From the NCBI GenBank assembly GCA_013151045.1, contig JAADIY010000042.1, positions 20,153 through 84,152 on the forward strand: 64,000 nt of DNA, written 5' to 3'. The translations under genes and the position numbers were made by a program. Below the pieces are notes generated by a model. It made no database searches and was not told where the DNA came from. It saw nothing but the letters and a program-made list of their open reading frames with translations. This stretch comes from Gammaproteobacteria bacterium (GTDB lineage: Bacteria; Pseudomonadota; Gammaproteobacteria; GCA-2400775). Shown here one piece after another: positions 4,364-47,411 of this stretch (the stretch's first letter is position 1; each line of letters begins with the position of its first letter).

Positions 4364-5192
4364 CGTCTATTTCCTTTATCTCTTTTACTTTGACATGAAT
4401 CGGGGCATAAGGCTCTGTTTGAACAATATCAATTAAACCGCCTTTTAATAATTCTAGAATAGCGAGAAAGCTTACGATCATGCCTTGTCTGCCCTCTTCA
4501 ACGGTAAACAGTTCTATAAAACTAATGAATGACCGCGCATTCACTTCAGATAAAATAGAAGTCATACGCTCACGTACCGACAAGGGCTCCATCACTATAT
4601 GGTGATGCGCATACTGATCCGCGCGTTTCATGACATCGTTGGCGGCGTGAATCAAATCTTGCAATGTGATTTTCGGTAATAATTTTTCAGTCACGGCGGG
4701 TGGTCGCGCTGCAACATCAAATACATCGCGACCCATTCGAGGCAAGGCATCAATATTTTGCGCTGCATCTTTAAAACGTTCATATTCTTGCAAACGTCTC
4801 ACTAGCTCGGCACGCGGATCATCTTCATCGTCCACTTCAACTGGACGTGGCAATAATAAACGTGACTTTATCTCAGCCAACATGGCTGCCATAACCAAAT
4901 ATTCGGCCGCTAGCTCAAGCTTCATCTCTTTCATTATTCCAATGTAATCCATGTATTGGCGAGTGATTTCTGCCAACGGAATATTGAGAATATCGAGATT
5001 CTGCCGTTTGATAAGGTAAAGAAGTAAATCGAGCGGGCCTTCAAACGCATCCAAAAACACTTCTAGAGCGTCGGGTGGAATATACAAATCTTGTGGGATT
5101 TGTGTCATCGGCTCACCAGCTACCATCGCTAGTGGTAAATGTTCCTGTGTAGGAACGGTATTGGGCGCTGGGCTTACTTCAGTTTCAGACAT
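4353..5192 (-). CDS. scpA: Segregation/condensation protein A (kleisin)
   Basis: 'FEGPLDLLLYLI', 'IKSRLLLP', 'FLAILEL'. Confidence 0.95.
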   Translation of the reverse strand: MSETEVSPAPNTVPTQEHLPLAMVAGEPMTQIPQDLYIPPDALEVFLDAFEGPLDLLLYLIKRQNLDILNIPLAEITRQYMDYIGIMKEMKLELAAEYLVMAAMLAEIKSRLLLPRPVEVDDEDDPRAELVRRLQEYERFKDAAQNIDALPRMGRDVFDVAARPPAVTEKLLPKITLQDLIHAANDVMKRADQYAHHHIVMEPLSVRERMTSILSEVNARSFISFIELFTVEEGRQGMIVSFLAILELLKGGLIDIVQTEPYAPIHVKVKEIKEIDVDA

Positions 5193-7182: not shown

Positions 7183-8031
7183 TTAATTAATTTTATTTAA
7201 AGATAAAGAGCTGTGCTGCCAAATCGGTACACACTGCTCAGGCAATGGTGCCACATGGCCTAATTCTCTACGGCCTTTTTCTGGGTCGTGAAAATCTGAG
7301 CCAACAGATGACATAAGACCATACTCCGTGGCTAAGGCTGTGGTAATACGAATATCGTCGTCATTATGACCACTACCAATAACCTCTATACCTTCGCCAC
7401 CATATTCAACAAAGTCTGCCAACATTTCCTTCATTTTTGTCATGGTGAGTTTGTAACGTGCCGGGTGAGCGACTACTGCCACACCTCCGGCTGCTTTGAT
7501 CCACGATACCGCATCAGCCAAAGGAGCCCATTCACTATTAACGTAACCAGGCTTGCCATTAACCAAATAGCGCTTAAAGACTTGCTTCATATCCTTGGCA
7601 TAGCCCTTATCGATAAGGAAACGCGCAAAATGGGTACGACTTAATAAGCCTTCCTTAGAATATTCCTGAGCGCCCTCATAGGCTCCTTCAATACCATGTC
7701 GCGCTAAATCTTTGGCCATACGCTGCGCACGCTCTGAGCGTGCATTTTGCATTTGCTTCAAACCTGCCGCCAACTCAGCGTTATTCGGATCCACACCCAA
7801 ACCAACGATATGCAATAAGCGCTTTGACCAGGTAGCTGAGATTTCGACACCATTAACCAGCTGCACACCATTATCATCAGCGATTTTGCGCGCCTCTGCC
7901 AAACCGTCAGTATTGTCATGGTCAGTCAACGCCAGCACATCAACGCGCTTATCTGCTGCGCGCTGCAATAACTGAGTAGGCGTCAATGTGCCATCAGAAT
8001 AAGTAGAATGAGAATGAAGGTCGTATTTCAT
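7183..8031 (-). CDS. rnm: PHP-domain 5'-3' exoribonuclease (YciV/TrpH/RNase AM)
   Basis: DLHSHSTYSDG, ALTDHD, AHPARY, GSDFH; likely start MKYDLH at 8031. Confidence 0.85.
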   Translation of the reverse strand: MKYDLHSHSTYSDGTLTPTQLLQRAADKRVDVLALTDHDNTDGLAEARKIADDNGVQLVNGVEISATWSKRLLHIVGLGVDPNNAELAAGLKQMQNARSERAQRMAKDLARHGIEGAYEGAQEYSKEGLLSRTHFARFLIDKGYAKDMKQVFKRYLVNGKPGYVNSEWAPLADAVSWIKAAGGVAVVAHPARYKLTMTKMKEMLADFVEYGGEGIEVIGSGHNDDDIRITTALATEYGLMSSVGSDFHDPEKGRRELGHVAPLPEQCVPIWQHSSLSLNKIN

Positions 8032-32489: not shown

Positions 32490-34334
32490 TTAACCTCGAG
32501 CACCTCCAGACAATGTGACTGGCGCACCGCTATCAGTATTACCATGGCTTCCAGTAACATTAAGCTCAGCAGGTGCAACATCAACATTACGTTTATTATC
32601 AACACCTGGCATTGCACTGATCGGGCCACGACGAGTTGGGTTTCTCTTCGCTGAAGATCTTCCCTCTGTACCCGTTACACGCTCATTACGATCCCAATCA
32701 TCACCGGTGATATTCATACCGGTCTCCATACCTTCGCCCGTCACACCACGAGCTGGTTTGACGATCTCTACAGGTGCGTTAACATTGCCTGTAGTGTTAT
32801 TAACACGATCACCAAAACGCGCTTCTTCAGTACCGGTTAACTTACCTTCTCCCAATGAGAAAGCACCGCTAACGCGACCTTGCTCATAACGAGAACCCGT
32901 TACAGCATTATGCTCGGTTGTCGTTTGGCTGGCGTGATTAGGTGCGTCAACACTAAAGTTACCCCATGGGGCGCCAGCTAGCGGCTTTGGGAAATCAGAT
33001 TCCCCGATTTGCGCTGGTACTGCACCACATACTTGCTGGTGATCAGTCGCACCAATATATGAAGTACCGGTTAGAGGCTTACATACGCCTTTAGCAGCAC
33101 CGGTTAAATTACCCAAACCAGGTTGAATACCCGTAATATCACGACCTTCATTACCGCGACGTAATTCACTACGTGCTAAAGCAACTTTTGCTTGCCTAGG
33201 CTCACAATACTTTTCATATTGCTCTGAACCAGCATAAGGTGTACCGGTCACCGCTTTACAGGTGCCCGCTTCATCACCAGTTACGTGTTCTGATCGCGCA
33301 GGTTTTGAACCTGATACGATTGTGCCGCGACTGGTTTGTGAAAAACTAATTTTTGCTGGACCAGTGTCTGGCTTAACACCGCAAAACTGTTCAAAGTGTT
33401 CAGTACCAAGATACTCCGTACCTGTCACGTTTTTGCAACTACCGCGCTCATCACCAGTAACACTATCACTACGTCCAATAGAACTCGCCGTTGTAATATT
33501 ACCGCCACGTGCCAAAGCGCTAGTTAGCACTTTTGACGGCACATTAAACTGCTTATTATCACTTTGACAATAACTCGCAAAAACATCATCTGACAAATAA
33601 TCTGTACCAGTAACTGAACGGCATAAACCAATTTCGTCGCCGGTTGTCTTAGCACTATGTGCCACCTGCGTACCCGTTACTTCTTCAGTGACTGCAGGTT
33701 TTGGACGGTTACCGCGAATAGGTGTCGACTTTGCTTTCACTGCACCACCACCTTTAACACTACGTTGTGCTCGCACACTACGTGCCAGATCACGGCTTGA
33801 GATATCTGGGTTTTGTGAACGCGCTACCTGCGCAGAACTCACTCCACTACTCATAATCTCTACACCTTTTTTACCATGTGCGGCCAGCGCATGGCGACGT
33901 GCACGTGAATTCATACGGCCTGAGTTGCTTGGCGATACGACGTTCACTTTTTTCATTTGTGTTGGCACTGATGCTGGCTTAGTAAATATTGCTGCTGCTG
34001 ATGCCGCACCAGCTTTACACTTGCCTTCACCATTGCAACCGCAACCACAACCTTTAGCTGTAGCCACTTTCGCTTTCGCACGTGCCACACGTTGACGGTC
34101 TGGCGCTGCCACACCGGCTTTACCTTTTGTCGACATTTGTCGACGTCGAGCCAGCGATTCTTGACGGCAGCTACCGAAAGTGCTTGAAGAAGCGCTAGCA
34201 CTACGACGCGGAGCAGGAGCAGCAGATGCGATTGCAGCGACGGGTGCGCTAGCGATTGCATTGCTTTTACCTTGAGTCTGAGCGTTGCGTCGTGCTCTTG
34301 CAGCACTGCGTCCTGACAGATCTTTAATGGCCAT
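32490..34334 (-). CDS. csoS2: Carboxysome scaffold CsoS2 (614 aa)
   Basis: Four Arg-rich N-peptides, (V/I)TG...C M-repeats, C-terminal VTLSGGARG. Confidence 0.95.
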   Translation of the reverse strand: MAIKDLSGRSAARARRNAQTQGKSNAIASAPVAAIASAAPAPRRSASASSSTFGSCRQESLARRRQMSTKGKAGVAAPDRQRVARAKAKVATAKGCGCGCNGEGKCKAGAASAAAIFTKPASVPTQMKKVNVVSPSNSGRMNSRARRHALAAHGKKGVEIMSSGVSSAQVARSQNPDISSRDLARSVRAQRSVKGGGAVKAKSTPIRGNRPKPAVTEEVTGTQVAHSAKTTGDEIGLCRSVTGTDYLSDDVFASYCQSDNKQFNVPSKVLTSALARGGNITTASSIGRSDSVTGDERGSCKNVTGTEYLGTEHFEQFCGVKPDTGPAKISFSQTSRGTIVSGSKPARSEHVTGDEAGTCKAVTGTPYAGSEQYEKYCEPRQAKVALARSELRRGNEGRDITGIQPGLGNLTGAAKGVCKPLTGTSYIGATDHQQVCGAVPAQIGESDFPKPLAGAPWGNFSVDAPNHASQTTTEHNAVTGSRYEQGRVSGAFSLGEGKLTGTEEARFGDRVNNTTGNVNAPVEIVKPARGVTGEGMETGMNITGDDWDRNERVTGTEGRSSAKRNPTRRGPISAMPGVDNKRNVDVAPAELNVTGSHGNTDSGAPVTLSGGARG

Positions 34335-34375
34335 ATTTGTTTATCCCATGCGTTATCGAGAAAACCGAGATGGAA

Positions 34376-34393
34376 GTGGTGCCAAAGCACCAC
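34376..34393 (-). terminator. Hairpin between cbbS and csoS2
   Basis: GTGGTGC-CAAA-GCACCAC perfect 7-bp stem. Confidence 0.5.
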
Positions 34394-34406
34394 ATCAACC
34401 TTCTTA

Positions 34407-34754
34407 TCAAGCAGCCTTACCGCGATACGCTACAAAGCAAACACCTTGGCTTTGCGTGTAGTTGTCATAACCAATCAAACGTACATGATGATCTGGGTAT
34501 GCGCGATGGCACGCTTCTAACTCAGCAACTACGTTACCAAGATCGGTTTCACCGAAGAACGGTAACTTCCACATTGGCCAGTAAACACTACTTACTAGCG
34601 CTGGATCTTCGTGCTCAATTGATGGTGTTAAACCTTGACTCAACATATAGTTAATTTGGGCATAAACTTCTTCTTGCGAAAACGGCGGTAAAAACGAAAA
34701 AGTTTCTAACGTCTGAGCAGTACGGTAATCACCCATTTCTGCATTTGATTTCAT
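34407..34754 (-). CDS. cbbS: RuBisCO small subunit (form IA, carboxysomal)
   Basis: 'ETFSFLPP', 'YWPMWKLPFFGE', 'HHVRLIGYDNYTQSQG'. Confidence 0.97.
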   Translation of the reverse strand: MKSNAEMGDYRTAQTLETFSFLPPFSQEEVYAQINYMLSQGLTPSIEHEDPALVSSVYWPMWKLPFFGETDLGNVVAELEACHRAYPDHHVRLIGYDNYTQSQGVCFVAYRGKAA

Positions 34755-34799
34755 TGCTGTCTCCTGAATATATTGCGAATCTATTAGGGATTAATTAAC

Positions 34800-36209
34800 T
34801 TAGGCGTCAAGCTTGTCTACGGTTTCAAATTCGAAGACGATCTCTTTCCAAGTTTCCATAGCGATTGCGAGTTCTGGGCTATGTTTTGCAGCACCTTCTA
34901 GAATATCGCGACCTTCACGCTCTAGTTCACGGCCTTCGTTACGCGCTTTAACACACGCTTCCAAAGCAACACGGTTTGCAGCAGCACCCGCAGCGTTACC
35001 CCAAGGATGTCCTTGAGTACCACCACCGAACTGAAGAATAGAATCATCGCCGAAGATCTCAACCAGCGCTGGCATATGCCATACGTGGATACCACCAGAA
35101 GCAACAGCAAAGACACCAGGCATTGAGCCCCAATCTTGATCAAAGAAGATACCGCGTTTGCGATCTTCAGGAATAAATGATTCACGTAACTGATCAACAA
35201 AACCTAATGTTGAAGCACGATCACCCTCAAGCTTACCAACAACCGTACCCGTATGGAGATGATCACCACCTGACAAACGTAAGCACTTAGCTAGTACACG
35301 GAAGTGAATACCGTGATGCGGGTTACGATCGATAACTGCATGCATGGCACGATGAATATGCAACAATATACCGTTATCACGACACCATTTAGCCAAACCA
35401 GAGTTGGCGGTAAAACCACCCGTCAAAAAGTCATGCATGATCACTGGCTGACCAAGCTCTTTGGCAAACTCAGCACGCTCATACATTTCTTCAGGTGTAT
35501 TAGCCGTTACGTTTAAGTAATGACCTTTAATCTCGCCAGTTTCAGCTTGTGCTTTTTCTACTGCCGCAGCAACAAACTCGAAACGGTTACGCCAGCGCAT
35601 GAATGGCTGGGAGTTGATGTTTTCGTCATCTTTGGTCAGATCCAAACCACCACGCAAACATTCGTAAACAGCACGACCGTAGTTTTTAGCAGAAAGACCC
35701 AGCTTAGGTTTAATCGTACAACCCAACAATGGACGCCCATATTTGTTTAGCTTGTCACGCTCAACTTGGATACCACTTGGTGGCCCAAGGCACGTTTTAA
35801 CAAATGCGATTGGGAAGCGAATGTCTTCGAGACGCAAGGCTTTAATTGCTTTAAAGCCGAACACGTTACCAACCAATGAGGTCAATACGTTAACAACTGA
35901 ACCTTCTTCAAAAAGATCAATTGGATAAGCAATGAAAGCATAGAAACAAGTGCTATCACCTGGCACATCTTCGATGCGATAGGCACGGCCTTTATAAAAT
36001 TCCATATCGGTCAATAACTCAGACCACACCGTACTCCAAGTACCGGTAGATGATTCTGCCGCTACGGCTGCAGCTGCTTCATTATGAGGAACACCTTCTT
36101 GTGGCGTAACCTTGAAACATGCTAACAAATCCGTATCAAGTGGCACGTAATCCGGAGTCCAGTACACATCACGGTACTCTTTAACACCCGCATCGTATTT
36201 CTTTCCCAT
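34800..36209 (-). CDS. cbbL: RuBisCO large subunit form IA(c)
   Basis: [31 protein letters not shown] active-site motif. Confidence 0.99.
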
Positions 36210-36526: not shown

Positions 36527-36649
36527 ATGCCACTGAACCACATGCAGCCAAAAATAAGTGAACTCGACAATATTATTCGTGCAGCGCAGAAAGGTGATGA
36601 AGCTGCGTTCGAAGAATTACTCAATCACCGCTATGAAAGGCTTTGTTGA
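36527..36649 (+). pseudogene. N-terminal fragment of an ECF sigma factor
   Basis: MQPKISELDNIIRAAQKGDEAAFEELLNHRYE resembles the ECF N-terminal region; truncated where the VWA remnant begins. Confidence 0.6.
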
Positions 36650-37320
36650 ACGCAAACGTGATAAAGACATCTTTTTATCAGCCCTAGGTTTTGGCCAAGG
36701 AAATTATAACGACCACACCATGCAATCTTTAGCGCAAAAAATGTTGGTTGATCAGGCGGCAGAAGCGCTATTTACTATCGCCAAAGACGTAAAGATTCAA
36801 ATTGAATTTAACCCTACAACCGTCAGCGAATATCGCCTTTTAGACTATAAAGCTCGCGCTCTCAATCGTGAAGATTTTAACAACGATGCCGTAGATACTA
36901 GCGATATTGGTGCTGGCCATAGTATTACCGCAATCTATAAAATTACAGCCAAAAGCGCCAATTCCGGACTAATTGACGAAAGTCGCTATCAAGCCAAACC
37001 AAGCAGTAGAGATATCACAGGCAAATATGGTTTTCTAAAGATGCGCTATAAACGGCCTGAATCAGATAGTTCTGAGCTTATCACGACAACAATTGCGAAC
37101 AGCAATACAAAAGCAGGTCTACAACTGGCCAACGAGATTCAATTTTCAACTTCTGTTGTGGCTTTTGCACAACTCTTACGCGGCGGTCAATACACAAATA
37201 ATTGGGGTTACGATCATGCACTAAAACTTGCTCAATCTCATCAAAGGCGAAGACCTCTATGGTCATCGCACAGAGTTTGTACAATTAATACCTAAAGCTA
37301 AAATCGCTGACGAATTATAA
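36633..37320 (+). pseudogene. C-terminal remnant of a YfbK-like VWA/DUF3520 protein
   Basis: 'LSALGFGQGNYND..MQ', 'FTIAKDVKIQIEFNP..V.EYRL', 'DFNNDAVD..DIGAGHSITAIY'; N-terminus missing; true C-terminus KGEDLYGHRTEFVQLI is in another frame, ending at 37320. Confidence 0.75.
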
Positions 37321-37387: not shown

Positions 37388-38374
37388 CTAAAAAGGACTC
37401 GGCCTAGGTGTATCAACACCAGACGCAGGTAATGTAGGCAATGGAAATGAAGGTTGTACACCTGTTAAGGTTTTCAGAAACGCAACGACACGAGCAGTCT
37501 CATCGTCGTTAAACTGAATACCTAATTGCACACGGCCCATAGTATTCACTGCTTCTTCCAAAGTTTTAATCGCACCATCATGAAAATACGGATATGTAAG
37601 CTCTATATTTCGCAGCAACGGAACTTTAAAAACATTGTCATCTATCAACTCTCCTGTTATCGCCGATCTGCCACGTGACGGGTGGGTCGTTTTATAAGGC
37701 TCAAACACGCCAAGCTTTTGAAAAGACTGTCCGCCAACACCAGGACCGTTATGACAATTCGTACAACCTACATTTTTAAAAATTTTATAACCAGATAACT
37801 CATATTCGCTAATCGCATTTTTGTTGCCCAACAACCACATATCGAATGGTGAATTAGGAGTAACTAATGTTTTTTCAAACTCCGCTATAGCCGACGCGAC
37901 GCTAGCTATAGTAATAGCTCCATCATCGAATACTTGTTTAAATTCGGTCACATACCCTGGTATCGTTTTTAGCACATCGGCCACCAATACATGAGGTGTT
38001 GCCATTGAAGCAGGATTTTCTATTGAGCTACGTGCCTGCTCCTCAAGCGTTGCCGCGCGGCCATCCCAATATTGAGAAAAATTTAAACTTGAATTTAAAA
38101 CGGTAGGCGTATTGATCCGCCCTTTCTGCCATTTATCACCAATTGGAAACTGTAAATTATCCACCCCGCCTAAGCTTAAGTTGTGGCATAAGTTACAGGA
38201 AAAATGGCCAGACTGTGATAGCCTACGCTCATAGTATAATTTTTTTCCTAACTCAGATTTTGCAAGGTCTATTAATTTAGGTGCACGCACCGGAAATATA
38301 GGCTCTTCCTTCGCAAAGGTTGAGCTTGAAGCAAACAAAACAACTAATAACAGACAAACAATAAGTCTTTTCAT
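37388..38374 (-). CDS. Di-haem cytochrome c peroxidase paralog 2 (degenerate peroxidatic site)
   Basis: Signal peptide, CNLCH and CTNCH, FKVPLLRN, PYFHDG, Met ligand; IGDKW and NPASM replace IGHxW and NPxEM. Confidence 0.88.
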   Translation of the reverse strand: MKRLIVCLLLVVLFASSSTFAKEEPIFPVRAPKLIDLAKSELGKKLYYERRLSQSGHFSCNLCHNLSLGGVDNLQFPIGDKWQKGRINTPTVLNSSLNFSQYWDGRAATLEEQARSSIENPASMATPHVLVADVLKTIPGYVTEFKQVFDDGAITIASVASAIAEFEKTLVTPNSPFDMWLLGNKNAISEYELSGYKIFKNVGCTNCHNGPGVGGQSFQKLGVFEPYKTTHPSRGRSAITGELIDDNVFKVPLLRNIELTYPYFHDGAIKTLEEAVNTMGRVQLGIQFNDDETARVVAFLKTLTGVQPSFPLPTLPASGVDTPRPSPF

Positions 38375-38389
38375 TACCTTCTCCAGGTT

Positions 38390-39382
38390 CTATAAAAACG
38401 GCTCAGGTAGTGGCGTATCTGGCCCTGATGGTGGCAATGTTGGAATATTGAACGACGGTTGCTCGCCTGTGAGTGTTTTCAAAAAAGCGACGACGCGAGC
38501 ATTTTCTTGTCGTGTAAAAGTCACCCCTCTTTGAACACGCGCCATCGTATCAACAGCCTCCTCCAAGGTTTCAACTTCGCCATCATGAAAATAGGGGAAA
38601 GTAAGTTCGATATTGCGCAGCAAAGGCACTTTAAACACATTAATATCTGATACCTTACCAGTGACATCAGCCTTACCTTGCGCAGGGTGATCTGTCTCAT
38701 ATACATCTTTGATACCTAGTCGTTGAAACGATTGGCCACCGACACCAGGACCGTTATGACAAGCAACGCAACCGCTGGTTTTAAACGTTAAATAACCAGC
38801 CAACTCATAATCATTTATTGCCGATGGGTCACCTAGCAACCATTGATCAAAACGAGAGTTAGGGGTAATTAAAATTTTCTCAAATTCAGCAATCGCACTG
38901 GTCACGCGGTCTATCGTTATTTCAGCACTACCAAACACTTGCCTAAACTCAATGACATACCCCGGTATTGTCTCTAATACCTTTATTGCTAATACATGGT
39001 TGGATGCCATCTCTATAGGATTAACAATAGGTGCTTCCGCTTGCTCCTTTAAATCTGCCGCCCTGCCATTCCAAAATTGCGCTAAATTCATACTTGAATT
39101 CAACACCGTTGGAGTGTTAATTCCACCCTTTTGCCAATTGTGTCCAATAGAAAATTGCATATTATCGACACCACCCAAACTCAGGTTATGACACGAGTTA
39201 CATGAAATATGCCCTGATAATGATAAACGCGGATCAAAAAATAATTTTTTGCCTAGCTCCACCTGAGCCAGGTTTATATTTTTAACAGGTTGAATGGGAG
39301 AAATCGGCTCTACTGCCAACGCAGTAGACACGGACAAGAAACAACATACTGTAAAAATTGCATTAGATAATTTATTTTTCAT
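38390..39382 (-). CDS. ccp: Di-haem cytochrome c peroxidase paralog 1 (canonical)
   Basis: Signal peptide, CNSCH and CVACH, IGHNW, QFWNGR, EQA..NPIEM, PYFHDG. Confidence 0.9.
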   Translation of the reverse strand: MKNKLSNAIFTVCCFLSVSTALAVEPISPIQPVKNINLAQVELGKKLFFDPRLSLSGHISCNSCHNLSLGGVDNMQFSIGHNWQKGGINTPTVLNSSMNLAQFWNGRAADLKEQAEAPIVNPIEMASNHVLAIKVLETIPGYVIEFRQVFGSAEITIDRVTSAIAEFEKILITPNSRFDQWLLGDPSAINDYELAGYLTFKTSGCVACHNGPGVGGQSFQRLGIKDVYETDHPAQGKADVTGKVSDINVFKVPLLRNIELTFPYFHDGEVETLEEAVDTMARVQRGVTFTRQENARVVAFLKTLTGEQPSFNIPTLPPSGPDTPLPEPFL

Positions 39383-39409
39383 AGTGATTTATCCTAATAA
39401 AGTTGCATT

Positions 39410-39748
39410 TCAGTCATTGCTATAACGAATTGTTTTAACCGGTAGAACATGTGACGTCGCTGAAATACCATGTAATCTAAGAAGCGTAGACCTATGAAAC
39501 GGCAAACTTTTTGTTATAGATTTTTCTTTGTATTTCGCCCTATGAATTGCTAGTTTAACTTCCACATTAAGCTCAGACTCGGACTGGGCCACCATAAAAT
39601 TTTGTTTTCCCGTAGAACTAGCGCTTACCATCCCGACAATCAGGAACAACAACAATGAGAAAACAATATAAATAACTACATTTACACCTATGACAGAAAA
39701 TATAGTCTTCGTATAGCCTGCAAAATCTCTACTACTTTCATCACCCAT
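39410..39748 (-). CDS. Hypothetical single-TM membrane protein
   Basis: Starts 2 nt after DUF1348 stop; one long hydrophobic segment then a basic tail. Confidence 0.55.
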   Translation of the reverse strand: MGDESSRDFAGYTKTIFSVIGVNVVIYIVFSLLLFLIVGMVSASSTGKQNFMVAQSESELNVEVKLAIHRAKYKEKSITKSLPFHRSTLLRLHGISATSHVLPVKTIRYSND

Positions 39749-39750
39749 AA

Positions 39751-40167
39751 TTAATGCCCTATACGCCTATCGTCCGCTTTAATTTCAATATCACTTGCAC
39801 TGACATCGCGCAGACTCACCAGACCATTACCATCAAATTCCCATTGCTCGCTGCCGTGAGTACGCATCCATTGACCTGACATCGCATGCTGCCATTCGCA
39901 CTCAAAACGTATAGAGATGCGATTGTCGGTATAAGTCCAAAGCTCCATTTCTAAACGGTAATGCAGCTCTCTTAACCATTTACGAGCAAGAAATTCATTA
40001 ATGGCTTCGTAACCACTAAGGCATTCATCTCCAATACGCCATTCAGACTGCTCGCTATATGCCTGCACCACGATCTCAGGAGATCGCGTATTCCAATTCT
40101 CCTGAACTTGTTGCACTTTCATTTGCGCAACTTCATTGGTAAACGACAATTTGAGCAATCCGGTCAT
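39751..40167 (-). CDS. DUF1348 / SnoaL-NTF2-like protein (divergent)
   Basis: 'WNTRSPE.V..AYS..SEWR', 'FLARKW.REL.YRL..ELW', 'RISIRFE.EW', 'GSEQWEFD'; AGGA RBS before MTGLL. Confidence 0.82.
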   Translation of the reverse strand: MTGLLKLSFTNEVAQMKVQQVQENWNTRSPEIVVQAYSEQSEWRIGDECLSGYEAINEFLARKWLRELHYRLEMELWTYTDNRISIRFECEWQHAMSGQWMRTHGSEQWEFDGNGLVSLRDVSASDIEIKADDRRIGH

Positions 40168-40220
40168 ATACATTCCTAAAATTTTGAGCCATGCCTGTAT
40201 TCTTCTTAATAACTTCTATC

Positions 40221-40335
40221 TCATATTTCGTACCAACCTATAAAATCCATGTAAAACAATGAGTTAAGTAACCTCTAAAACCTCAATAATTTGAGTTCCA
40301 CAATTTTTTATGGTTTAATCCTCAAAATATTGGGG
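40221..40335 (-). promoter_or_regulatory. sigma54 promoter with IHF site and three enhancer palindromes
   Basis: TTGGTACGAAATATGA (GG-N10-GA, 40221-40236); IHF-like AAACAAtgagTTA (40254-40266); CCTCAA-N4-TTGAGT-like boxes at 40281, 40298 and 40320. Confidence 0.6.
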
Positions 40336-40342
40336 TCTATTC

Positions 40343-42184
40343 ATGATTAAACCTTCATGCAAGCAACACAAATGGGAGTTTCAAGACGTACCCGCCATGC
40401 TTGCGGTACTCGACGAACAGCTCATTTGCCGTCACGCAAGTTTGGGCTGGCGTAACCACCTTGGTCTGCCAAAAAATGATGGGGCAGAACTACTATTAGA
40501 AGACTTATTACTGCTCGACGATGAAGTTGAACTGACAAATTTACTTACAGATATTTTTACTCACAAAAACTCTGTGCATGACATTTCTGTTTCCCTATTG
40601 GGCAAACTGGGTGTTGCTCAGGGGTTACTCGCTGCCTGCTTAATTCAACAAAGCAATGAGCCCCCTCACCTACTGCTCAACGCGACCTGCGGAGAACAAC
40701 TCGATAAAACACTTGCCGAACTGCGTCGCATACAATCTGAGCACGGCTCTATCCTCAGTGCCGTAGGAGAAGGTATTTATGGACTAGACAAGAATGGCAT
40801 GACTATATTTGCCAATGCTGCATCAACAGAAATCGTTGGATGGAAAATAGAAGATATTCTCGGCAAACCTGCACATGACGTACATCACCACACTCATGCA
40901 GACGGCACACCCTACCCTCGTGACGATTGCCCAGTTTATGCAGCACTAAAGGATGGAAAAATCCATCATGTGGACGATGAAGTTTTCTGGCATAGCAATG
41001 GCTCTGCCGTGCCGGTTGAATATACCAGTACACCTATCCTACAAGATGGTGAACTGAACGGTGCTGTTGTCGTATTCCACGATATTTCTGAACGTAAAGA
41101 AATTGAACGACAACGTGAAGCCGCATACCAAGAAATTAACGCCTTAAAAGAAAAACTGGAATTAGAGCGTGATTACTTACGTGATGAAATTAATGTTACC
41201 TCTGACTTCGGTGAGATTATTGGGGATAGTTCTGCACTGCAACATACCATGGCACAAATCGAAGCCGTTGCATCCACTCAAGCTAATGTATTAATACTGG
41301 GTGAATCCGGTGTAGGCAAAGAAATGATTGCACGTGCCATTCATGCTAAAAGTGAACGCTCAGAAAAGCCTTTGGTAAAAGTAAACTGCGCTTCTATTCC
41401 TAAAGAACTATTCGAGAGCGAATTTTTTGGGCATATCAAAGGGGCATTTACGGGCGCCCATCGCGATCGCACCGGACGTTTACAGCTTGCTGCCGGCGGA
41501 ACAATTTTTCTAGATGAAATTGGCGAAATCCCATTAAGCCTACAAAGTAAGTTATTACGTGCGTTGCAAGAACATGAGTTTGAACGTGTGGGTGATGATA
41601 AAACCATTAAAGTTGATGTACGTATTGTTGCCGCCACCAATACTGATCTGGAAGCTGAAGTAAAAGCAGGACGCTTTCGCGAAGATTTATTTTATCGTCT
41701 CAGTGTGTTCCCTATTAAGGTGCCGCCACTGCGAGAACGTATTAAGGACATTGCACCCTTAGCACAACACTTTCTAAACCGAAGTTGTGCTGAATTAGGA
41801 CGCGATCAAATCAAGCTTTCTAAACAGCAAGTTACAAGACTGCAACAACATAAATGGCCTGGCAATATTCGAGAACTAAAAAATATCATCGAGCGTGCTG
41901 TTATTCTAAGCAAAGGAAACCGAGCAAGACTCGACTTGGTTTTGCCTGACCAATCTCAAGGGGAAGAACCTGAAGATAACAATCAGATACCTGACTCTAC
42001 ATTCGTTACCGATGCAGAATTTCGCCAGCTGGAAAAAACCAATATTATCGCGGCACTTAAATATGCCAACTGGCAGGTATGGGGAGAAAATGGAGCAGCA
42101 GAATTGCTCGGCATCAAACCCTCTACACTAACTTATAGAATGAAAAATTTTGGCATTAACAAAACTAAAACACCTTATGAGTGA
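40343..42184 (+). CDS. PAS-domain sigma54-dependent enhancer-binding protein (Fis HTH)
   Basis: PAS/PAC, GESGVGKE, intact GAFTGA, FLDEIGE, FREDLFYRL, WPGNIREL, C-terminal HTH. Confidence 0.93.
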   Translation: MIKPSCKQHKWEFQDVPAMLAVLDEQLICRHASLGWRNHLGLPKNDGAELLLEDLLLLDDEVELTNLLTDIFTHKNSVHDISVSLLGKLGVAQGLLAACLIQQSNEPPHLLLNATCGEQLDKTLAELRRIQSEHGSILSAVGEGIYGLDKNGMTIFANAASTEIVGWKIEDILGKPAHDVHHHTHADGTPYPRDDCPVYAALKDGKIHHVDDEVFWHSNGSAVPVEYTSTPILQDGELNGAVVVFHDISERKEIERQREAAYQEINALKEKLELERDYLRDEINVTSDFGEIIGDSSALQHTMAQIEAVASTQANVLILGESGVGKEMIARAIHAKSERSEKPLVKVNCASIPKELFESEFFGHIKGAFTGAHRDRTGRLQLAAGGTIFLDEIGEIPLSLQSKLLRALQEHEFERVGDDKTIKVDVRIVAATNTDLEAEVKAGRFREDLFYRLSVFPIKVPPLRERIKDIAPLAQHFLNRSCAELGRDQIKLSKQQVTRLQQHKWPGNIRELKNIIERAVILSKGNRARLDLVLPDQSQGEEPEDNNQIPDSTFVTDAEFRQLEKTNIIAALKYANWQVWGENGAAELLGIKPSTLTYRMKNFGINKTKTPYE

Positions 42185-42254: not shown

Positions 42255-45200
42255 TTAATCTACTATCAAATTTCCATTTGACAACAAATTATCAACGATC
42301 TGCTGGTCACTTAGTGATCCCCCTGCTGTCAGGTCAGTACCACTAAGCGTAATTTCTTGCGTTGATTCAAACGTACCAGAACCATCAGTATCAATACTAA
42401 TGACCGTACCACCACTCCCGTCTTGCTCAAAATGCAAATAATCAGTAAGCGTATCGGACTCTTCACCATGTAGCAGATCTGCCAGGTTGAGTTTGTCGCC
42501 ACCTGCACCTGCGGTAAAGTCTGTAATGGTATCGCTTGCCGGATCTGCTAGCGTACCCTCATCATCATTACGCCAGACAAAAGTATCACTATCACTACCA
42601 CCAGTCAGCGTATCATCACCTTTGCCACCATAAAGGAAATCGATTCCTGCACCACCAAGCAACGTATCATCACCATCTTGACCAAACAATTGATCGTCGC
42701 CATTCAAACCATTTATAGTATCGCCAGTATTGCTACCGACCAACCTGTCATTTCCTGACGTTGCAGGATCTTGACCATCTACTGTGCCATCACCATCACT
42801 ATCGGTAGAGATAAAGTCTGCCTCACCATCTCCATTACTATCTGTTGGTACTGTTATTCCACCAGGGCCATAGACATCATCTAGTCCGTCGTTATTAGCA
42901 TCAATTCCGCTTGGTGCGACGTAACTACTGACGGCTTGTGCTTCAACATTATCTAAAATTCCATCGTTATCACTATCAACATCTAAACTATTGATAATGC
43001 CATCATTATCAACATCGTTATTAATAAAAGTGCCTGTACCCGAAATATCAAAACGATAATCCACGCCGTTGACTGCAATAAAGTCTGTACCAGCACCGGT
43101 TACTCCCTGCACAATAAATCCAGGCACTCCACCACCAATATCAACCACCGTGACTGTAACGTTTACAGGGGAAGTCGTCGCTCTAAATATAGAATCTTCA
43201 ACACCGCCATTTAAATCTGTCTGAAGTCCAGTAAACGACGTATTTGCCCCACTACCGTCTGAATTAATGAAAGTAAGATCAAAAAACTCATTTGCGCCGT
43301 CACCATTAATATCACCCCGTGCAAACACGTTATTTATTGTTACTGATGAGCCTATAGCAACACCAAATGATGATAAATTGATTGCCTGAGTTGCAGTGCC
43401 ACTGCCATTTGGTGAAATATTTGAGTCTGACGTAGTGGTAGTAAACAGACTAGTGACAAGCTGGGCATCTTCTATTGTATCGATGATACCGTCATTATCA
43501 TCATCAATATCGTCGATATCACTGATGCCATCTCCATCGCTGTCCACATCAATAAACTCAGCAATACCATTGCTGTCGCCATCAACTGGACTTAAACCAG
43601 CCGGTACATAAGCATCGTCCAAGCCATCATTATTTGCATCGATTCCGCTTGGTGCAACATAACTACCGATTGCTTGTGCTTCTACATTATCGAGTATGCC
43701 ATCGTTATCACTATCAACATCTAGACTATTAATGATGCCGTCGCCATCAGCATCGTTACTAGTGCCTATACCCTCAATATCGAAACGATAATCGACACCC
43801 ACAAAACCATTGAAACTGCCTACAGCACCCGTAGTTGAACCTGCCACACTAATACCAGGCACACCACCACCAATATCAATTACTTGAACATTTAGGTCCA
43901 CTGAATTTGTGACTGGGCTAAACCCAAGATTCTGCGATCCTGTATTAACAGCGCCTGTTGTCACTCCGCCATTAAATAACAAAGTGAATGTCTCAGTACC
44001 GCCATTCAAATCGCCTTGCGCAAATAAATTTGAAATACTAACTGTATCGCCAATAGCTATACCAAATGTAGATAAATTAATATTTTGAGAACTGTTGCCA
44101 CCGTTGGCAGGAATATTCGAATCAGTAGTGGTTGTTGTAAATGGTGATGCAACTAAAAATGCATCTTCAACCGTATCAAGAATTCCGTCATTATCATCAT
44201 CAATATCAATAACGTCGATAATACCATCATTATCAGTATCTAAGCCGCGAACCACTGACAAAGTCACCGTACCATTTGCCTGGTCACCATCACCGTCTAC
44301 GGTTACGAAATTGATAATCTCCTGAATAGAAGTGTTTAGTGCAAGACTGTCATCAGCAGTGTATTGATATTCACCTGTCATAAAATCGAAATTAAGAGTT
44401 CCACCATTACTAGTGACCATATCAAGCATTGCGCCAGATACCACCCCACTGCCATTACTTGGCGTGATCGTATCTGCTGTTGGATCATAATCATAAGTAA
44501 TTCCGTCAATAGTGATGGACATTGTTACACCACCATCGGCACCAAAAGCATTGCTGATTGCACCAAACAAGTTACCACTAGCTGTCGCATCAATGGTCGA
44601 TAGCAAGGTATTAGCCAATATACTTGCGTCAGTTACAATCACACCTGCTCTGTCAGTATCGTTGATACCGTCATAAGCCAACGGATCCAAGAAACCTTGG
44701 TCTGCTGCTGTCAAATCACCACCGAAACCAACAGCGAATGCGTCAATTTCATTAGCCACTAAGAAATCAGTATACGCTGTGATTTCAGCACCCGTTATAC
44801 CCGATGTGCCTTCAGAGCCTCCACCTGTCTGGGGTTCACCATCCGATATAAAATAAGATACATTAGTAACTGTTGGATCACTATCATTCAGCGCTCCCGA
44901 TGCCGAAAAAGAAGATTGGAATTCTGCTACAGCTAAATCATAGTTAGTGCCGCCACCAGTATTGAAAATTGCCGATCTAGAGCCTGAACTACCATCGCCA
45001 ATTAATGCCAATGCTTCTGAAGCACTAACCCAGGTTGATAATGAACTCGACGCAGTGCTAAAGGTTGTAATTTGTACCCGTACGTCACCAAGGTTAGCGT
45101 AAGTTTGAATCACATCACGCACGCTTTCTAACGCCAGTTGCAAGCGCTCAATATTTACGGTACCGCCACTTCCATCATCTACTGCAACCGAACTACCCAT

Positions 45201-47411
45201 ACTGCCTGAGACATCAATCACAAAACTCAAGTTGGTGTTTGATGGAGGTATAACCAGAGATAAATCTAAATTACCACTTATGGGACTATCATCTTCAATT
45301 GATATGTTAATAACATCATCAGCAGAAGCATCACCATCACTGACACGAATACCAACATCAAAATTAAGTACGTTTTCCCCATCATCTGTAGTACCCGGCA
45401 AATTAGGATGATCAAGCGAACCTAGCAATGTCACTTGGTAACCGCCGTCGTTATCGATTTCAAAACGAATAATATCGTTGCCACCAGCAGAACCTGTCAA
45501 TGTTTGATCGCCATTACTTAAGATAAATGTTATGGCTTGCCCGCCTGATGTCAGCCCTGAAGGTCCAGAACCAGTAAATGTAGCCGTCAGAGAAGCACTC
45601 TCAATATCTGTTGCACTATAGGTACCTGTAAATACGGCACTATCAGTCATATCTGCTGGATTACCAACAGTATCAGCGATACCGGCAGCCAAACCTTCTT
45701 CTGATACTACTGCCGAATCTACGGCAGAAATTACTGGAGCATCATTAACCGCATTAACCGTAACGGTTAGGGTCGCCGTATCAAAACCACCCTGACCATC
45801 AGCAATAGTATACGTAACTGTATCAGTGCCGTTAAAATCAGGATTCGGTGTATAAGTGATCGTACCGTTTGCATTAACTATAGCCGTACCATTAGTACCA
45901 TCGGTAACTTGGGTAACTTGCAGTGTGCCACCATCACCATCGCTGTCGTTCGGTAATACAGCAACCGTTACCGCGTTATCTTCGTTTGTCGTAGCACTAT
46001 CATTATTAGCAACTGGTCCATCATTGATCGAATTAACCGTAACACTGACTGTGGCAATTTCAGTGTCACCGGCATCTGTTGTTACCGTATAGGTATAACT
46101 ATCTGTACCGTTAAAGTTTAAATTAGGTGTATAAGTAACTTCACCATTGCTGCCTATAGTTACAGTACCATTAGCGCCCTGAGTGACCCCTGTGATCATC
46201 GCATTCGGTCCAAAACTGTCATTAGTAAGCACATTTAGTGTGCTAGCCATATCTTCATCAGTAGTTAAGGTGTCGTTTACTGCATCTACTACACTGTTAA
46301 TTATAATATTGACTGTTGCTGTATCTGTGCCACCATTACCATCAGTGATTTGATAAGTAAAACTATCGGTACCATTAAAGTCTTCATCCGGGACGTAATC
46401 AAACGTGCCGTCTGTATTTAGAGTCAAGGAACCATTCGTAGGACCACTAACCGGAATAGTATTGACAGATAATGTGTCACCATCAATATCGTTATCTACT
46501 CCACTATCAGTAAGAACATTACCTGATAAAGTGACGTCCTCATTAACAGTAAAGCTATCATCCACCGCATCCGGGCCATCATTCACGCCGCTAACATTCA
46601 CCGTCACCGTCGCCGTATCCGTGCCGCCATTGCCATCACTGATGGTGTAGTCAAACGTCGCAACACCATTGAAATTCGCCGTCGGCGTAAACGTCACCGT
46701 CCCATCAACGTTCAACACCACACTGCCGTTACTCGCGTTACTCACTCCACTGATCGTTAACGTATCTCCATCAAGATCCGTATCATTCGGATCCACAATG
46801 TCCGCAACTCCCAGCGTCAACGGCGTATCTTCGGCCGTACTCGCCGTATCATCCACCGCATCCGGGCCATCATTCACCGGCGGTGCTACAGGAGGTGCAA
46901 CACCGGTAGGTGAACCATCTCCGGCAAGCGCAGGAAGCTCATCAGCCCCGACAATATCCTCGAAGTCGGTAAATTCACGACCAAAAGCAAATGGCGTCTC
47001 ATCTGTATCAACGATACCTTCTCTACCATCACGATCATAAATCGATGCTTGGTTTAACGCGTTTGCTTCACCTTGATTTTGATTGCCTGCGGCCGGTGCT
47101 TCTAAATCAGCAAGGTCAACACCTTCAATGATTGATTGCTGTAACGCTAGAATTTGATCTACTTGGTTATCATCGAAAACACCTAGATCATAAGAGACTG
47201 TCTCATCGAGCAATATTTCAGCTTGCTCGCCTACTGCTAGCTCTCGACCACTATAGAAAGTTACGACTATATTCGTGCCGTCACCGGTAATAAGTACATC
47301 ACCGTCTTTGACAATATCACCAATATTAATAACTCTAATGATGCCATCAGCACTACGAACCTCAGCGCTACCAGCTAATTCAGTGATATATCCAATACTT
47401 TTTGTAGTCAT
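42255..47411 (-). CDS. LapA-like T1SS adhesin (retention module, Ig/cadherin-like repeats, VWA, TSP3-like Ca-binding repeats, RTX, T1SS signal)
   Basis: Retention module with PAAG cleavage site, repeated 'VNDGPDAVDD..FTY.I.DG.GG' units, VWA 'FVIDVSGSM', DxDxDG arrays, GGxGxD nonapeptides, 'DTITDF'. Confidence 0.9.
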   Translation of the reverse strand: MTTKSIGYITELAGSAEVRSADGIIRVINIGDIVKDGDVLITGDGTNIVVTFYSGRELAVGEQAEILLDETVSYDLGVFDDNQVDQILALQQSIIEGVDLADLEAPAAGNQNQGEANALNQASIYDRDGREGIVDTDETPFAFGREFTDFEDIVGADELPALAGDGSPTGVAPPVAPPVNDGPDAVDDTASTAEDTPLTLGVADIVDPNDTDLDGDTLTISGVSNASNGSVVLNVDGTVTFTPTANFNGVATFDYTISDGNGGTDTATVTVNVSGVNDGPDAVDDSFTVNEDVTLSGNVLTDSGVDNDIDGDTLSVNTIPVSGPTNGSLTLNTDGTFDYVPDEDFNGTDSFTYQITDGNGGTDTATVNIIINSVVDAVNDTLTTDEDMASTLNVLTNDSFGPNAMITGVTQGANGTVTIGSNGEVTYTPNLNFNGTDSYTYTVTTDAGDTEIATVSVTVNSINDGPVANNDSATTNEDNAVTVAVLPNDSDGDGGTLQVTQVTDGTNGTAIVNANGTITYTPNPDFNGTDTVTYTIADGQGGFDTATLTVTVNAVNDAPVISAVDSAVVSEEGLAAGIADTVGNPADMTDSAVFTGTYSATDIESASLTATFTGSGPSGLTSGGQAITFILSNGDQTLTGSAGGNDIIRFEIDNDGGYQVTLLGSLDHPNLPGTTDDGENVLNFDVGIRVSDGDASADDVINISIEDDSPISGNLDLSLVIPPSNTNLSFVIDVSGSMGSSVAVDDGSGGTVNIERLQLALESVRDVIQTYANLGDVRVQITTFSTASSSLSTWVSASEALALIGDGSSGSRSAIFNTGGGTNYDLAVAEFQSSFSASGALNDSDPTVTNVSYFISDGEPQTGGGSEGTSGITGAEITAYTDFLVANEIDAFAVGFGGDLTAADQGFLDPLAYDGINDTDRAGVIVTDASILANTLLSTIDATASGNLFGAISNAFGADGGVTMSITIDGITYDYDPTADTITPSNGSGVVSGAMLDMVTSNGGTLNFDFMTGEYQYTADDSLALNTSIQEIINFVTVDGDGDQANGTVTLSVVRGLDTDNDGIIDVIDIDDDNDGILDTVEDAFLVASPFTTTTTDSNIPANGGNSSQNINLSTFGIAIGDTVSISNLFAQGDLNGGTETFTLLFNGGVTTGAVNTGSQNLGFSPVTNSVDLNVQVIDIGGGVPGISVAGSTTGAVGSFNGFVGVDYRFDIEGIGTSNDADGDGIINSLDVDSDNDGILDNVEAQAIGSYVAPSGIDANNDGLDDAYVPAGLSPVDGDSNGIAEFIDVDSDGDGISDIDDIDDDNDGIIDTIEDAQLVTSLFTTTTSDSNISPNGSGTATQAINLSSFGVAIGSSVTINNVFARGDINGDGANEFFDLTFINSDGSGANTSFTGLQTDLNGGVEDSIFRATTSPVNVTVTVVDIGGGVPGFIVQGVTGAGTDFIAVNGVDYRFDISGTGTFINNDVDNDGIINSLDVDSDNDGILDNVEAQAVSSYVAPSGIDANNDGLDDVYGPGGITVPTDSNGDGEADFISTDSDGDGTVDGQDPATSGNDRLVGSNTGDTINGLNGDDQLFGQDGDDTLLGGAGIDFLYGGKGDDTLTGGSDSDTFVWRNDDEGTLADPASDTITDFTAGAGGDKLNLADLLHGEESDTLTDYLHFEQDGSGGTVISIDTDGSGTFESTQEITLSGTDLTAGGSLSDQQIVDNLLSNGNLIVD
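46556..46877. repeat. 31-bp exact direct repeat bounding a 291-bp GC-rich Ig unit
   Basis: TATCATCCACCGCATCCGGGCCATCATTCAC at 46556-46586 and 46847-46877. Confidence 0.85.

Follow-up and report, generated by a model that had tools for sequence, protein, structure and literature searches.

Gene organization and control region

We analyzed a putative sigma-54-controlled gene cluster in a 64,000-nucleotide stretch of DNA (hereafter the window; positions 20,153 to 84,152 of contig JAADIY010000042.1) from a gammaproteobacterium whose genome (GenBank assembly GCA_013151045.1) is a 1.95-Mb draft of 62 contigs, labelled G000 in our comparisons. Four open reading frames (ORFs) on the minus strand of the window and one on the plus strand make up the locus. 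The first minus-strand ORF (39751..40173), the putative first gene of an operon, encodes a DUF1348 protein of the NTF2-like type (Pfam PF07080, 151.9 bits, cut-off 22.1), for which a second ATG at 40167 may be an alternative start codon. It is followed by an orphan ORF of 112 amino acids (39410..39748) that has one hydrophobic stretch, matches no Pfam family and is doubtful as a gene, and then by ccpA (38390..39382) and ccpB (37388..38374), encoding a Nitrosomonas-type di-haem cytochrome c peroxidase (CCP) of 330 amino acids and its paralogue of 328 amino acids (Pfam CCP_MauG, 191.6 and 171.8 bits, respectively). The gaps are 2 nt between DUF1348 and the orphan ORF, 27 nt between the orphan ORF and ccpA, and 15 nt between ccpA and ccpB, in agreement with the initial annotation, which had described four tightly spaced minus-strand genes. 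On the plus strand, separated from DUF1348 by 169 nt (40174-40342) and divergent from it, lies a gene for a sigma-54 enhancer-binding protein of 613 amino acids (40343..42184), identified by its Pfam domains (Sigma54_activat, PF00158, 251 bits; PAS_4, 52.3 bits; HTH_8, 29.4 bits), its motifs, an alignment of its PAS domain and a phylogenetic tree. It consists of an N-terminal region, a PAS domain, an AAA+ domain with Walker A motif GESGVGKE at residue 320 and GAFTGA at residue 367, and a Fis-type helix-turn-helix (HTH), which confirms the earlier description of a PAS-AAA-Fis activator with an intact GAFTGA motif. None of the five locus proteins reached the cut-off of any NCBIfam model. The host genome also encodes rpoN (contig C43) and six further sigma-54 activators.

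The intergenic DNA of the window was compared, in an alignment, with its counterparts in three congeners, and related loci from other genomes were inspected at the equivalent position. A sigma-54-type -24/-12 promoter directed toward DUF1348 on the minus strand (TGGTACGAAATATGAG, 40235..40220; TTGGTACGAAATATGAG, 40220..40236) falls in a block, TTGG-YAY-N5-NTG-W, that is in register across all four species. The -24 GG and the spacing between GG and TG are kept in each of them, and the -12 element reads TGA or TGT where the consensus would be TGC. The TGA-type -12 also stands ahead of the targets of three related activators (L131, L132 and L133; TGGCACGCTTAGTGAA or TGGCACGCATAGTGAA), and a canonical GC is found at -12 in five related loci (L018, L020, L129, L139 and L141), with sigma-54-type promoters at the same place in nine related loci. 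Since related loci carry either the same variant or the canonical GC at this position, we take the element to be probably a genuine promoter, though a non-canonical one. A broad scan with the sigma-54 consensus, allowing three mismatches, was uninformative, returning 356 matches against 315 expected. A simple scan of the minus strand of the operon and the 169-nt gap found no sigma-70-like promoter, and terminator-like matches on this strand within the operon are limited to a weak stem of 5 pairs in ccpB (38223..38206).

Upstream of this promoter, three 16-bp dyads with the consensus CCNCA-N6-TGNGG (40335-40320, 40313-40298 and 40296-40281) were recognized from the alignment and from related loci, and an analogous triple is present in L020. 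An IHF-like site (TAACTCATTGTTTTA, 40252..40266, minus strand) lies between the dyads and the promoter; its TAAnnnATTGnTT stretch (40266-40252) is conserved in the alignment and, judged by eye, resembles the IHF consensus. The dyads, the promoter and the IHF-like site are all within conserved blocks of the four-species alignment, and the dyads are likely candidate binding sites of the activator. As the dyad nearest to the activator gene is only 8 nt from its start codon, the arrangement also suggests autoregulation. The pattern CTCAA-N4-TTGAG, with at most one mismatch, has two copies in the 64-kb window, both in the gap between the activator and DUF1348; the count itself is at chance level (mean 2.38 expected), and it is the clustering in the gap that stands out. 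The initial annotation had placed a -24/-12 element, an IHF-like site and three palindromes in a 170-bp gap: all of these elements are present, except that the gap is 169 nt and the -12 is non-canonical.

The genus collection consists of nine genomes, mostly incomplete, and the congeners discussed here are labelled G001, G002, G003 and G007. In G007, the activator is divergent from DUF1348, which is followed by an isochorismatase-like hydrolase gene with a signal peptide and by two CCP genes; in G001, DUF1348 is followed by two CCP genes; and in G002, the contig ends after the divergent activator and DUF1348. The order activator, DUF1348 and tandem CCP genes recurs in two congeners, and the gene between DUF1348 and ccpA varies by species. 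DUF1348 and the two CCP genes have the same strand and order in all three genomes having both, with gaps of 35-67 nt in G001 and G007. Because of this synteny among congeners and the short gaps, DUF1348 and the two CCP genes may well form a single transcription unit, as the arrangement suggests. The orphan ORF does not share this conservation: it is present in one of the nine genomes, belongs to no family and has the lowest GC content (0.369) of the four ORFs, so the initial annotation's single-transmembrane "membrane anchor" gene is not upheld. We considered the orphan ORF as a relic of the isochorismatase-like gene of G007, and rejected this candidate, as no DNA or protein similarity was detected between them. 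Nor do we find the conserved four-gene system that had been put forward, since the middle gene varies and, as judged from the 80 DUF1348 loci and 80 metagenomic CCP loci described below, the CCP pair is linked to DUF1348 only in the genus. Of the co-occurrence expected in other genomes, the regulator and DUF1348 do recur widely, and activator, DUF1348 and CCP pair are found together in two congeners, but no adjacent CCP link was seen outside the genus in these loci. Transposase fragments were seen by eye at the 3' flank of the CCP pair in G007 (L013, 2-1241), which fits a rearrangement-prone region.

Activator family and DUF1348 contexts

To place the activator, we examined the surroundings of the 15 best PAS matches outside the genus. 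Six of them are activators beside hydrolase-type genes (L129-L134), four are found with cyanase, and the other five have no recognized neighbour or are not activators. In the hydrolase group, L129 has an isochorismatase-like hydrolase, which shares 80% identity with the G007 protein, followed by an alpha/beta hydrolase; L130 has an isochorismatase-like hydrolase followed by DUF1348; L131 and L132 have an alpha/beta hydrolase, a CMD protein and an SDR; L133 has an alpha/beta hydrolase, an isochorismatase-like hydrolase and an SDR; and L134 has a nitroreductase. In the cyanase group, the activator is divergent from cynA-cynB-cynD-cynS in L139, L140 and L141, with DUF1348 present in L140 and L141, and it adjoins cynS in L137. 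The cyn-linked activators are about 50-53% identical to that of the window over the PAS, AAA+ and HTH regions.

The phylogenetic tree of the activators, which was built by a quick search with SH-aLRT support only and rooted with the six other activators of the host genome as the outgroup, unites all DUF1348-, hydrolase- and cyn-linked activators in one family with a support of 100 against the six paralogues. The clade of the genus activators (97) lies within a group with L129 and L130 (95), which L018 and L020 join at the next level (99). A separate clade (94), sister to the L131-L134 group, holds the four cyn-linked activators, and three GAF-type activators constitute a third branch of the family. 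Two of these GAF-type activators (L031, 6230-7825; L037, 3656-5278) lie beside DUF1348 and carry a four-Cys motif, C-x2-C ... C ... C, in the sensor.

These results bear on the resemblance to CynF, the activator of the cyanate operon, that the initial annotation had pointed out. According to the accessible part of the report on Pseudomonas pseudoalcaligenes CECT5344, CynF is essential for the cyanate-induced expression of cynABDS, and the cluster is cynFABDS (PMC6627978). The activator of the window is like CynF in being a divergently encoded sigma-54 activator with a Fis-type HTH; L139-L141 show the published layout of cynF divergent from cynABDS, and their activators keep most of the conserved PAS residues of the window's activator, including His178, His182 and Cys196-Pro197. 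It should be read from this that membership of the "CynF family" is defined here by the gene context of the cyn-type activators and not by the published CynF sequence. The family tie stands, but the closer resemblance does not: including CynF-like regulators in the phylogeny, as had been proposed, puts the window's activator outside the cyn clade, in the hydrolase-linked part of the family. The two further differ in their binding sites, the cyn-type loci having dyads of the form TACGAAA..TTCGTA unlike CCNCA-N6-TGNGG, and in their targets, which in the window are DUF1348 and two peroxidases and no cyn genes. Searches found no cynS, cynA-like gene or hydrolase partner in G000, and cynS is also absent from the two congeners included in the sample of the class described below.

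Two further features of the hydrolase-type loci were noted. A conserved hydrophobic ORF of about 75 amino acids opens the operons right after the sigma-54 promoter (L018, about 2410-2640; L129, about 4785-5010; L130, about 1800-2000; L020, about 7640-7960; read by eye), and it is unrelated to the 112-amino-acid ORF of the window. The exported isochorismatase-like hydrolase is 80-83% identical across families of Gammaproteobacteria (compared in L013 3426-4178, L129 5042-5788 and L133 10462-11196), and the accompanying activators are 54-67% identical, suggesting either strong constraint on the hydrolase or its recent transfer.

The DUF1348 protein of the window matches PDB 2IMJ (PFL_3262) with 114.3 bits. 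Its predicted model has a mean confidence (pLDDT) of 92.6, and the nearest folds are 2IMJ, followed by ketosteroid isomerases, SalBIII and LinA. Twenty-six columns are invariant in 46 homologues including that of the window, many of them Arg, Trp, Glu or Tyr, which fits a small-molecule pocket. PFL_3262 and the Cercospora protein 71cR share its Pfam family and fold, and the protein of the window differs from them in being divergent and in coming first in a putative sigma-54 operon. The fungal 71cR has been studied as a cercosporin-resistance gene (PMC4608573); in the accessible text of the papers naming DUF1348, all of them fungal, no function for it is in print. We also considered DUF1348 as an analogue of iota-class carbonic anhydrases that replaces CynT. 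This candidate was rejected, as the iota-class families are COG4337 and COG4875 according to the accessible part of the sources; no iota-class structure is among Foldseek ranks 1-50 for DUF1348, and the idea is kept only as a remote one.

To see in which contexts DUF1348 occurs, we relied on an alignment-based scan, since a single-sequence scan of genome contigs found no relatives and a protein homologue search returned six matches without informative names. We examined the best 80 of at least 599 matches, which come from many phyla; as these loci are ranked by similarity, they are not independent. Within about 5 kb of DUF1348, we found a dehalogenase-like alpha/beta hydrolase in 14 of the 80 loci, a PNPOx-type flavoprotein in 13, an SDR in 7, and an isochorismatase-like hydrolase, an AhpD-like CMD protein, a sigma-54 activator and a cyanase (cynS) in 5 each. 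A CCP gene is near DUF1348 in two loci and adjacent in neither, one being about 4 kb away and the other a weak match. Ten loci match the activator of the window, five of them over a region including the AAA+ part (L018 and L020, with PAS; L022, L031 and L037, with GAF) and five over the PAS domain only, in histidine kinases (L023, L060, L080, L089 and L097). In L031, L089 and L023, the locus is reduced to a regulator and DUF1348. DUF1348 is part of, or adjoins, cyn clusters in L060, L080, L091, L097, L140 and L141, for instance between cynD and cynS in Polaromonas (L080) and after cynS in Phormidium (L097), and it is about 1.5 kb from cynS in L090. Two apparent fusions, namely, DUF1348 in frame with an isochorismatase-like hydrolase in a member of Woeseiaceae (L020, 7985-9164; an assembly error is possible) and an isochorismatase-like hydrolase fused to an alpha/beta hydrolase in a member of Zixibacteria (L037, 6210-7868), argue that the products of these three genes work together.

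In an even sample of 400-401 Gammaproteobacteria genomes, with intersections counted by eye, DUF1348 is present in 39 of 400 genomes, cynS in 54 of 401 and both in 16; each of the two tallies includes one genome that is marked as unpublished (G315 and G047). Only 3 of the 42 DUF1348 matches in this sample are within 7 kb of cynS. Our literature searches found no mention of NTF2 among the papers listed for cyanase and cynABD, and no paper on the set of DUF1348, isochorismatase-like hydrolase, alpha/beta hydrolase, AhpD-like, flavoprotein and SDR genes that accompanies this activator family.

The peroxidase pair and the flanking genes

CcpA aligns end to end with the structurally characterized CCPs of Nitrosomonas europaea (1IQC, 438.1 bits) and Shewanella oneidensis (CcpA, 3O5C, 390.1 bits), and with MauG at only about 72 bits. 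CcpB is 64-66% identical to CcpA, and the scores of the NCBIfam models MauG and MbnH are far under their cut-offs. By these comparisons, both proteins are to be classified as Nitrosomonas-type di-haem CCPs and not as MauG-type protein-modifying enzymes. Two CxxCH haem motifs are present in CcpA, CcpB and all orthologues, and both paralogues keep the Met region as well as the columns for Trp and Gln; CcpA keeps also the His and Glu columns, so that it agrees with the two reference enzymes in both haem motifs and in its active-site His, Gln, Glu and Trp. By eye, both have hydrophobic N-termini with Ala-x-Ala-like sites resembling signal peptides. The difference from the reference enzymes lies in the tandem duplication of the gene in the window, the loss of the Glu in the second copy and the predicted sigma-54 control.

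In di-haem CCPs, the active-site Glu is catalytic and is located, together with the Gln, at the peroxidatic haem. At the column of N. europaea Glu102, CcpA has Glu in all three species, and CcpB has Ser, Gly and Gly (Ser in the window). The distal-His column of the CcpB orthologues is Asp, Tyr or His (Asp in the window). For comparison, we collected the 80 nearest metagenomic CCP loci and the 150 cluster representatives most similar to CcpB; the former were obtained by an alignment-based search, as a search of metagenome contigs with the single CcpB sequence found no relatives. The active-site Glu is kept in all 83 CCP genes of the 80 loci, including both copies of the tandem CCP genes in L144 and L161, and in 128 of the 150 cluster representatives. 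As the distal-His position is highly variable in the two sets, only the Glu loss stands out in CcpB. None of the 80 loci has DUF1348 beside the CCP gene, although many of these contigs are short and the evidence is accordingly weak, and one has a match to an unrelated AAA+ activator.

Nitrosomonas-type CCP pairs are present in G000, G007 and G001, with a fragment in G003, and more distant CCP genes are present in all nine genomes of the genus. G001 carries a second tandem pair (L225; G001:C9 410-3120), in which the Glu is kept in both copies and which is divergent from a gene for an Rrf2 regulator whose best NCBIfam match, at 150.7 bits against a cut-off of 182, is NsrR; part of a second Rrf2 gene is located at the start of this contig. 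In a CCP tree obtained by a quick search, the A and B copies form sister clades with a support of 100, and the NsrR-linked copies of G001 are at the base of each. The activator-linked CcpB copies have the longest branches in this tree, longer than those of ccpA. Our reading of the tree is that a tandem duplication occurred within the lineage and that the whole pair was then copied, with one copy ending up behind DUF1348. The sequence upstream of ccpA has nothing in common with the upstream region of the NsrR-linked pair.

We propose that CcpA reduces H2O2 in the standard way, with electrons from c-type cytochromes. CcpB, which has kept its haems and lost the catalytic Glu, would be either a partner with an altered function or a decaying copy. 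A literature search combining CCP, RpoN and enhancer-binding protein found nothing related.

A third, distant gene of the di-haem CCP family was observed close by, just beyond the window (G000:C15:88875-89843; L001, 1375-2343). Its product is 42-45% identical to CcpA and CcpB and has MbnH as its best NCBIfam match (178.9 bits, below the cut-off), and the gene is followed by a 368-amino-acid ORF without an NCBIfam match; a gene of this third type is present in all nine genomes of the genus. Near the ccpB end of the operon, the window contains genes for the RuBisCO large and small subunits and a CsoS2-like repeat protein (32490-36209, minus strand; read by eye from the translations), a neighbourhood that is absent beside the G001 and G007 loci. 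Between the RuBisCO large-subunit gene and ccpB, a plus-strand ORF (36558-37295) matches YfbK_C only (Pfam, 179.2 bits), without the usual N-terminal von Willebrand part, and probably represents what is left of a truncated gene. On the downstream side of the activator gene, the minus strand (42255-47411) encodes a giant protein of 1718 amino acids that is repeat-rich and resembles calcium-binding adhesins; an adhesin-like neighbour is also found in G007 (L013, 7720-12000), with an extra GreA/GreB-like ORF in between (by eye).

Interpretation and candidate signals

The explanation that we favour, at a probability of roughly 0.6, is a sigma-54-dependent operon comprising DUF1348, the orphan ORF if it is a gene, ccpA and ccpB, which the enhancer-binding protein encoded divergently from it would activate. 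The activator would bind the three CCNCA-N6-TGNGG dyads, located 45-115 bp upstream of the -24/-12 promoter, to which it would be brought by looping, probably assisted by IHF. The signal would be read by the PAS domain, whose invariant His-His-Cys-Pro residues suggest that it binds a metal or haem. Activation would then yield a putatively cytoplasmic NTF2-like enzyme, DUF1348, together with two predicted periplasmic di-haem peroxidases of the Nitrosomonas type, and the clearest physiological output would be the reduction of periplasmic H2O2 by CcpA. Judged from the comparisons above, the operon is a mosaic in which the regulator and the small protein recur widely and the peroxidase pair is local to the genus. 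An old pairing of regulator and DUF1348 would normally drive isochorismatase-like hydrolases, alpha/beta hydrolases and related genes, with CynF and cynABDS as a sister branch; in this genus, the pairing would have gained a copy of the genus-specific tandem CCP pair and lost the hydrolases.

Several observations weigh against this explanation. In none of the four species of the genus does the -12 element have the consensus GC, which makes the strength of the promoter uncertain. The link to CCP rests on three related, mostly draft genomes. DUF1348 is divergent in the genus (151.3 bits in G000 and 139.8 bits in G001, against about 210-230 for full-length matches elsewhere), and its contexts are varied, with more than half of the 80 loci having none of the searched genes within 5 kb. 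The PAS subtype of the activator (E <= 1e-15) is found in 122 of the 400 sampled Gammaproteobacteria genomes (a tally that includes the unpublished genome G303), often in large multi-domain sensors; being common across many sensor types, it points to no single ligand. Finally, the Glu loss in CcpB, the lost hydrolases, the orphan ORF and the transposase in G007 would fit decay rather than a tuned module.

As to the sensor, an alignment of 27 PAS domains shows His178, His182, Cys196 and Pro197 (activator numbering) to be invariant and His183 and Asp187 to be nearly so, His183 being Tyr in the cyn-linked L141. The predicted fold (pLDDT 90.9) has DosP, FixL, LOV domains and NifL as its structural neighbours, which are generic PAS matches, and a sequence search of solved structures likewise gave weak generic matches, the best being PA0861 with 28.9 bits. 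It is a reasonable guess that the domain binds a metal or haem. In our own ranking of inducers, a reactive small molecule other than those named next comes first, though tentatively, because the regulons of the nearest relatives consist of hydrolases. A peroxide-type oxidant, for which the outputs of the operon and the precedent of PexR speak, is a possible second, and cyanate or another pseudohalide, suggested by the family tie to CynF and the links between DUF1348 and cyn genes, is the least likely of the three.

PexR of Myxococcus xanthus is a published precedent for a peroxide signal. As described in the accessible part of the report, it is a GAF-type activator that senses H2O2 through a Zn/Fe site of His, Cys and Asp residues. 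It binds three repeats upstream and activates ahpC and katB through sigma-54, and its gene adjoins ccp in some myxobacteria and in other phyla; the same text gives FNR or OxyR control as usual for bacterial CCP genes (PMC12754779). The locus of the window shares with it the sigma-54 control of peroxide genes, at least as predicted, a divergent activator, three upstream dyad repeats and a His/Cys-rich sensor site. By analogy, H2O2 would oxidize or displace the metal or haem of the PAS domain and relieve autoinhibition, thereby inducing the peroxidases. We regard such a switch as possible but on the whole unlikely. It agrees with the predicted H2O2 reductases as outputs in the genus, the AhpD-like CMD proteins, nitroreductases and flavoproteins in related regulons, the three repeats of the PexR precedent (PMC12754779), the invariance of His178, His182 and Cys196-Pro197, the haem and flavin PAS sensors among the structural neighbours, and the study of a fungal DUF1348 protein for cercosporin resistance (PMC4608573). 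However, the sensor here is a PAS and not a GAF domain and belongs to another branch of the family. The ligand set of PexR (His102, His120, Cys122 and Asp140) is absent from it, and even the GAF-type relatives found in this study carry a four-Cys motif instead of the His/His/Cys/Asp site. Furthermore, the structural matches are those of any PAS domain, the closest relatives by sequence control hydrolases and not peroxide enzymes, the CynF relatives respond to cyanate, and the PexR regulon, compared here by its description in the accessible text, is without DUF1348.

Alternatively, the activator might sense cyanate, a thiocyanate-derived compound or another heterocumulene, with DUF1348 acting on the compound or its product and the peroxidases handling linked oxidative chemistry. 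The cynABDS-linked activators do belong to the same family and keep most of the conserved PAS residues, and CynF is needed for the cyanate-induced expression of cynABDS, according to the accessible text (PMC6627978). DUF1348 is in or beside cyn clusters at several loci, and cynS is present in 16 of the 39 DUF1348-positive genomes, compared with 54 of 401 overall. Yet the host and two sampled congeners are without cynS and G000 has no cynA-like partner, the activator of the window is in the hydrolase-linked clade with binding sites unlike those of the cyn type, and no more than 3 of the 42 sampled DUF1348 genes lie within 7 kb of cynS. Bearing in mind also that the cyn-type activators are assigned by gene context and not by the published CynF sequence, we consider this alternative to have a rather low probability, about one chance in a few.

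It is also conceivable, but improbable, that the adjacency is incidental, the CCP pair being transcribed by itself, for example from a promoter in the 339-bp stretch of the orphan ORF, and the sigma-54 switch controlling DUF1348 alone. The CCP pair appears to be movable, as G001 has a second pair next to an Rrf2 regulator resembling NsrR; what lies between DUF1348 and ccpA changes from species to species, the G007 locus has a transposase at its flank, and L031, L089 and L023 pair a regulator with DUF1348 only. In contrast, strand and order are the same in the three genomes having both parts, ccpA is preceded by gaps of 27-67 nt, the scan predicts no sigma-70-like promoter there and the single weak terminator-like match is in ccpB, and no trace was detected of the region upstream of the NsrR-linked pair. 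The least convincing alternative, a remnant of an ancestral DUF1348, isochorismatase-like and alpha/beta hydrolase operon eroding in a small genome, with DUF1348 and CcpB under relaxed selection, could account for the isochorismatase-like gene being kept only in G007, the absence of the alpha/beta hydrolase gene, the orphan ORF, the low Pfam score of DUF1348, the Glu loss and long branches of CcpB and the truncated YfbK_C-only ORF adjoining the operon, but it is hard to reconcile with intact reading frames in three species, a DUF1348 that keeps all the family-invariant residues, a conserved promoter and binding sites, and a CcpB in which the two haem motifs, Trp, Gln and the Met region are retained.

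Going beyond the favoured sigma-54 operon, one may speculate that the His/His/Cys-Pro type of PAS domain, which the window's activator has in common with CynF-type activators and several histidine kinases, is a metal or haem sensor of small reactive ligands (cyanate-like pseudohalides or peroxide-type oxidants, for example), that DUF1348 acts on the sensed compound, that the circuit was rewired to the peroxidases in this genus and that CcpB has a new activity or serves CcpA as a dedicated partner. Taken together, this would be a long shot, and the second point would explain why DUF1348 travels with PAS sensors of any output domain.

These results do not overturn current knowledge; what they describe is a new combination of known parts. 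CynF would be part of a broader family of sigma-54 activators, most members of which appear to control a previously undescribed, detoxification-type gene set of DUF1348, isochorismatase-like cysteine hydrolase, dehalogenase-like alpha/beta hydrolase, AhpD-like, flavoprotein and SDR genes. The operon also offers a natural pair of peroxidases that differ in having or lacking the catalytic Glu. After PexR, the operon may represent a second independent way in which sigma-54 controls periplasmic peroxidases, and DUF1348, which is present in about one-tenth of the sampled Gammaproteobacteria, gains a recurring and testable regulatory context.

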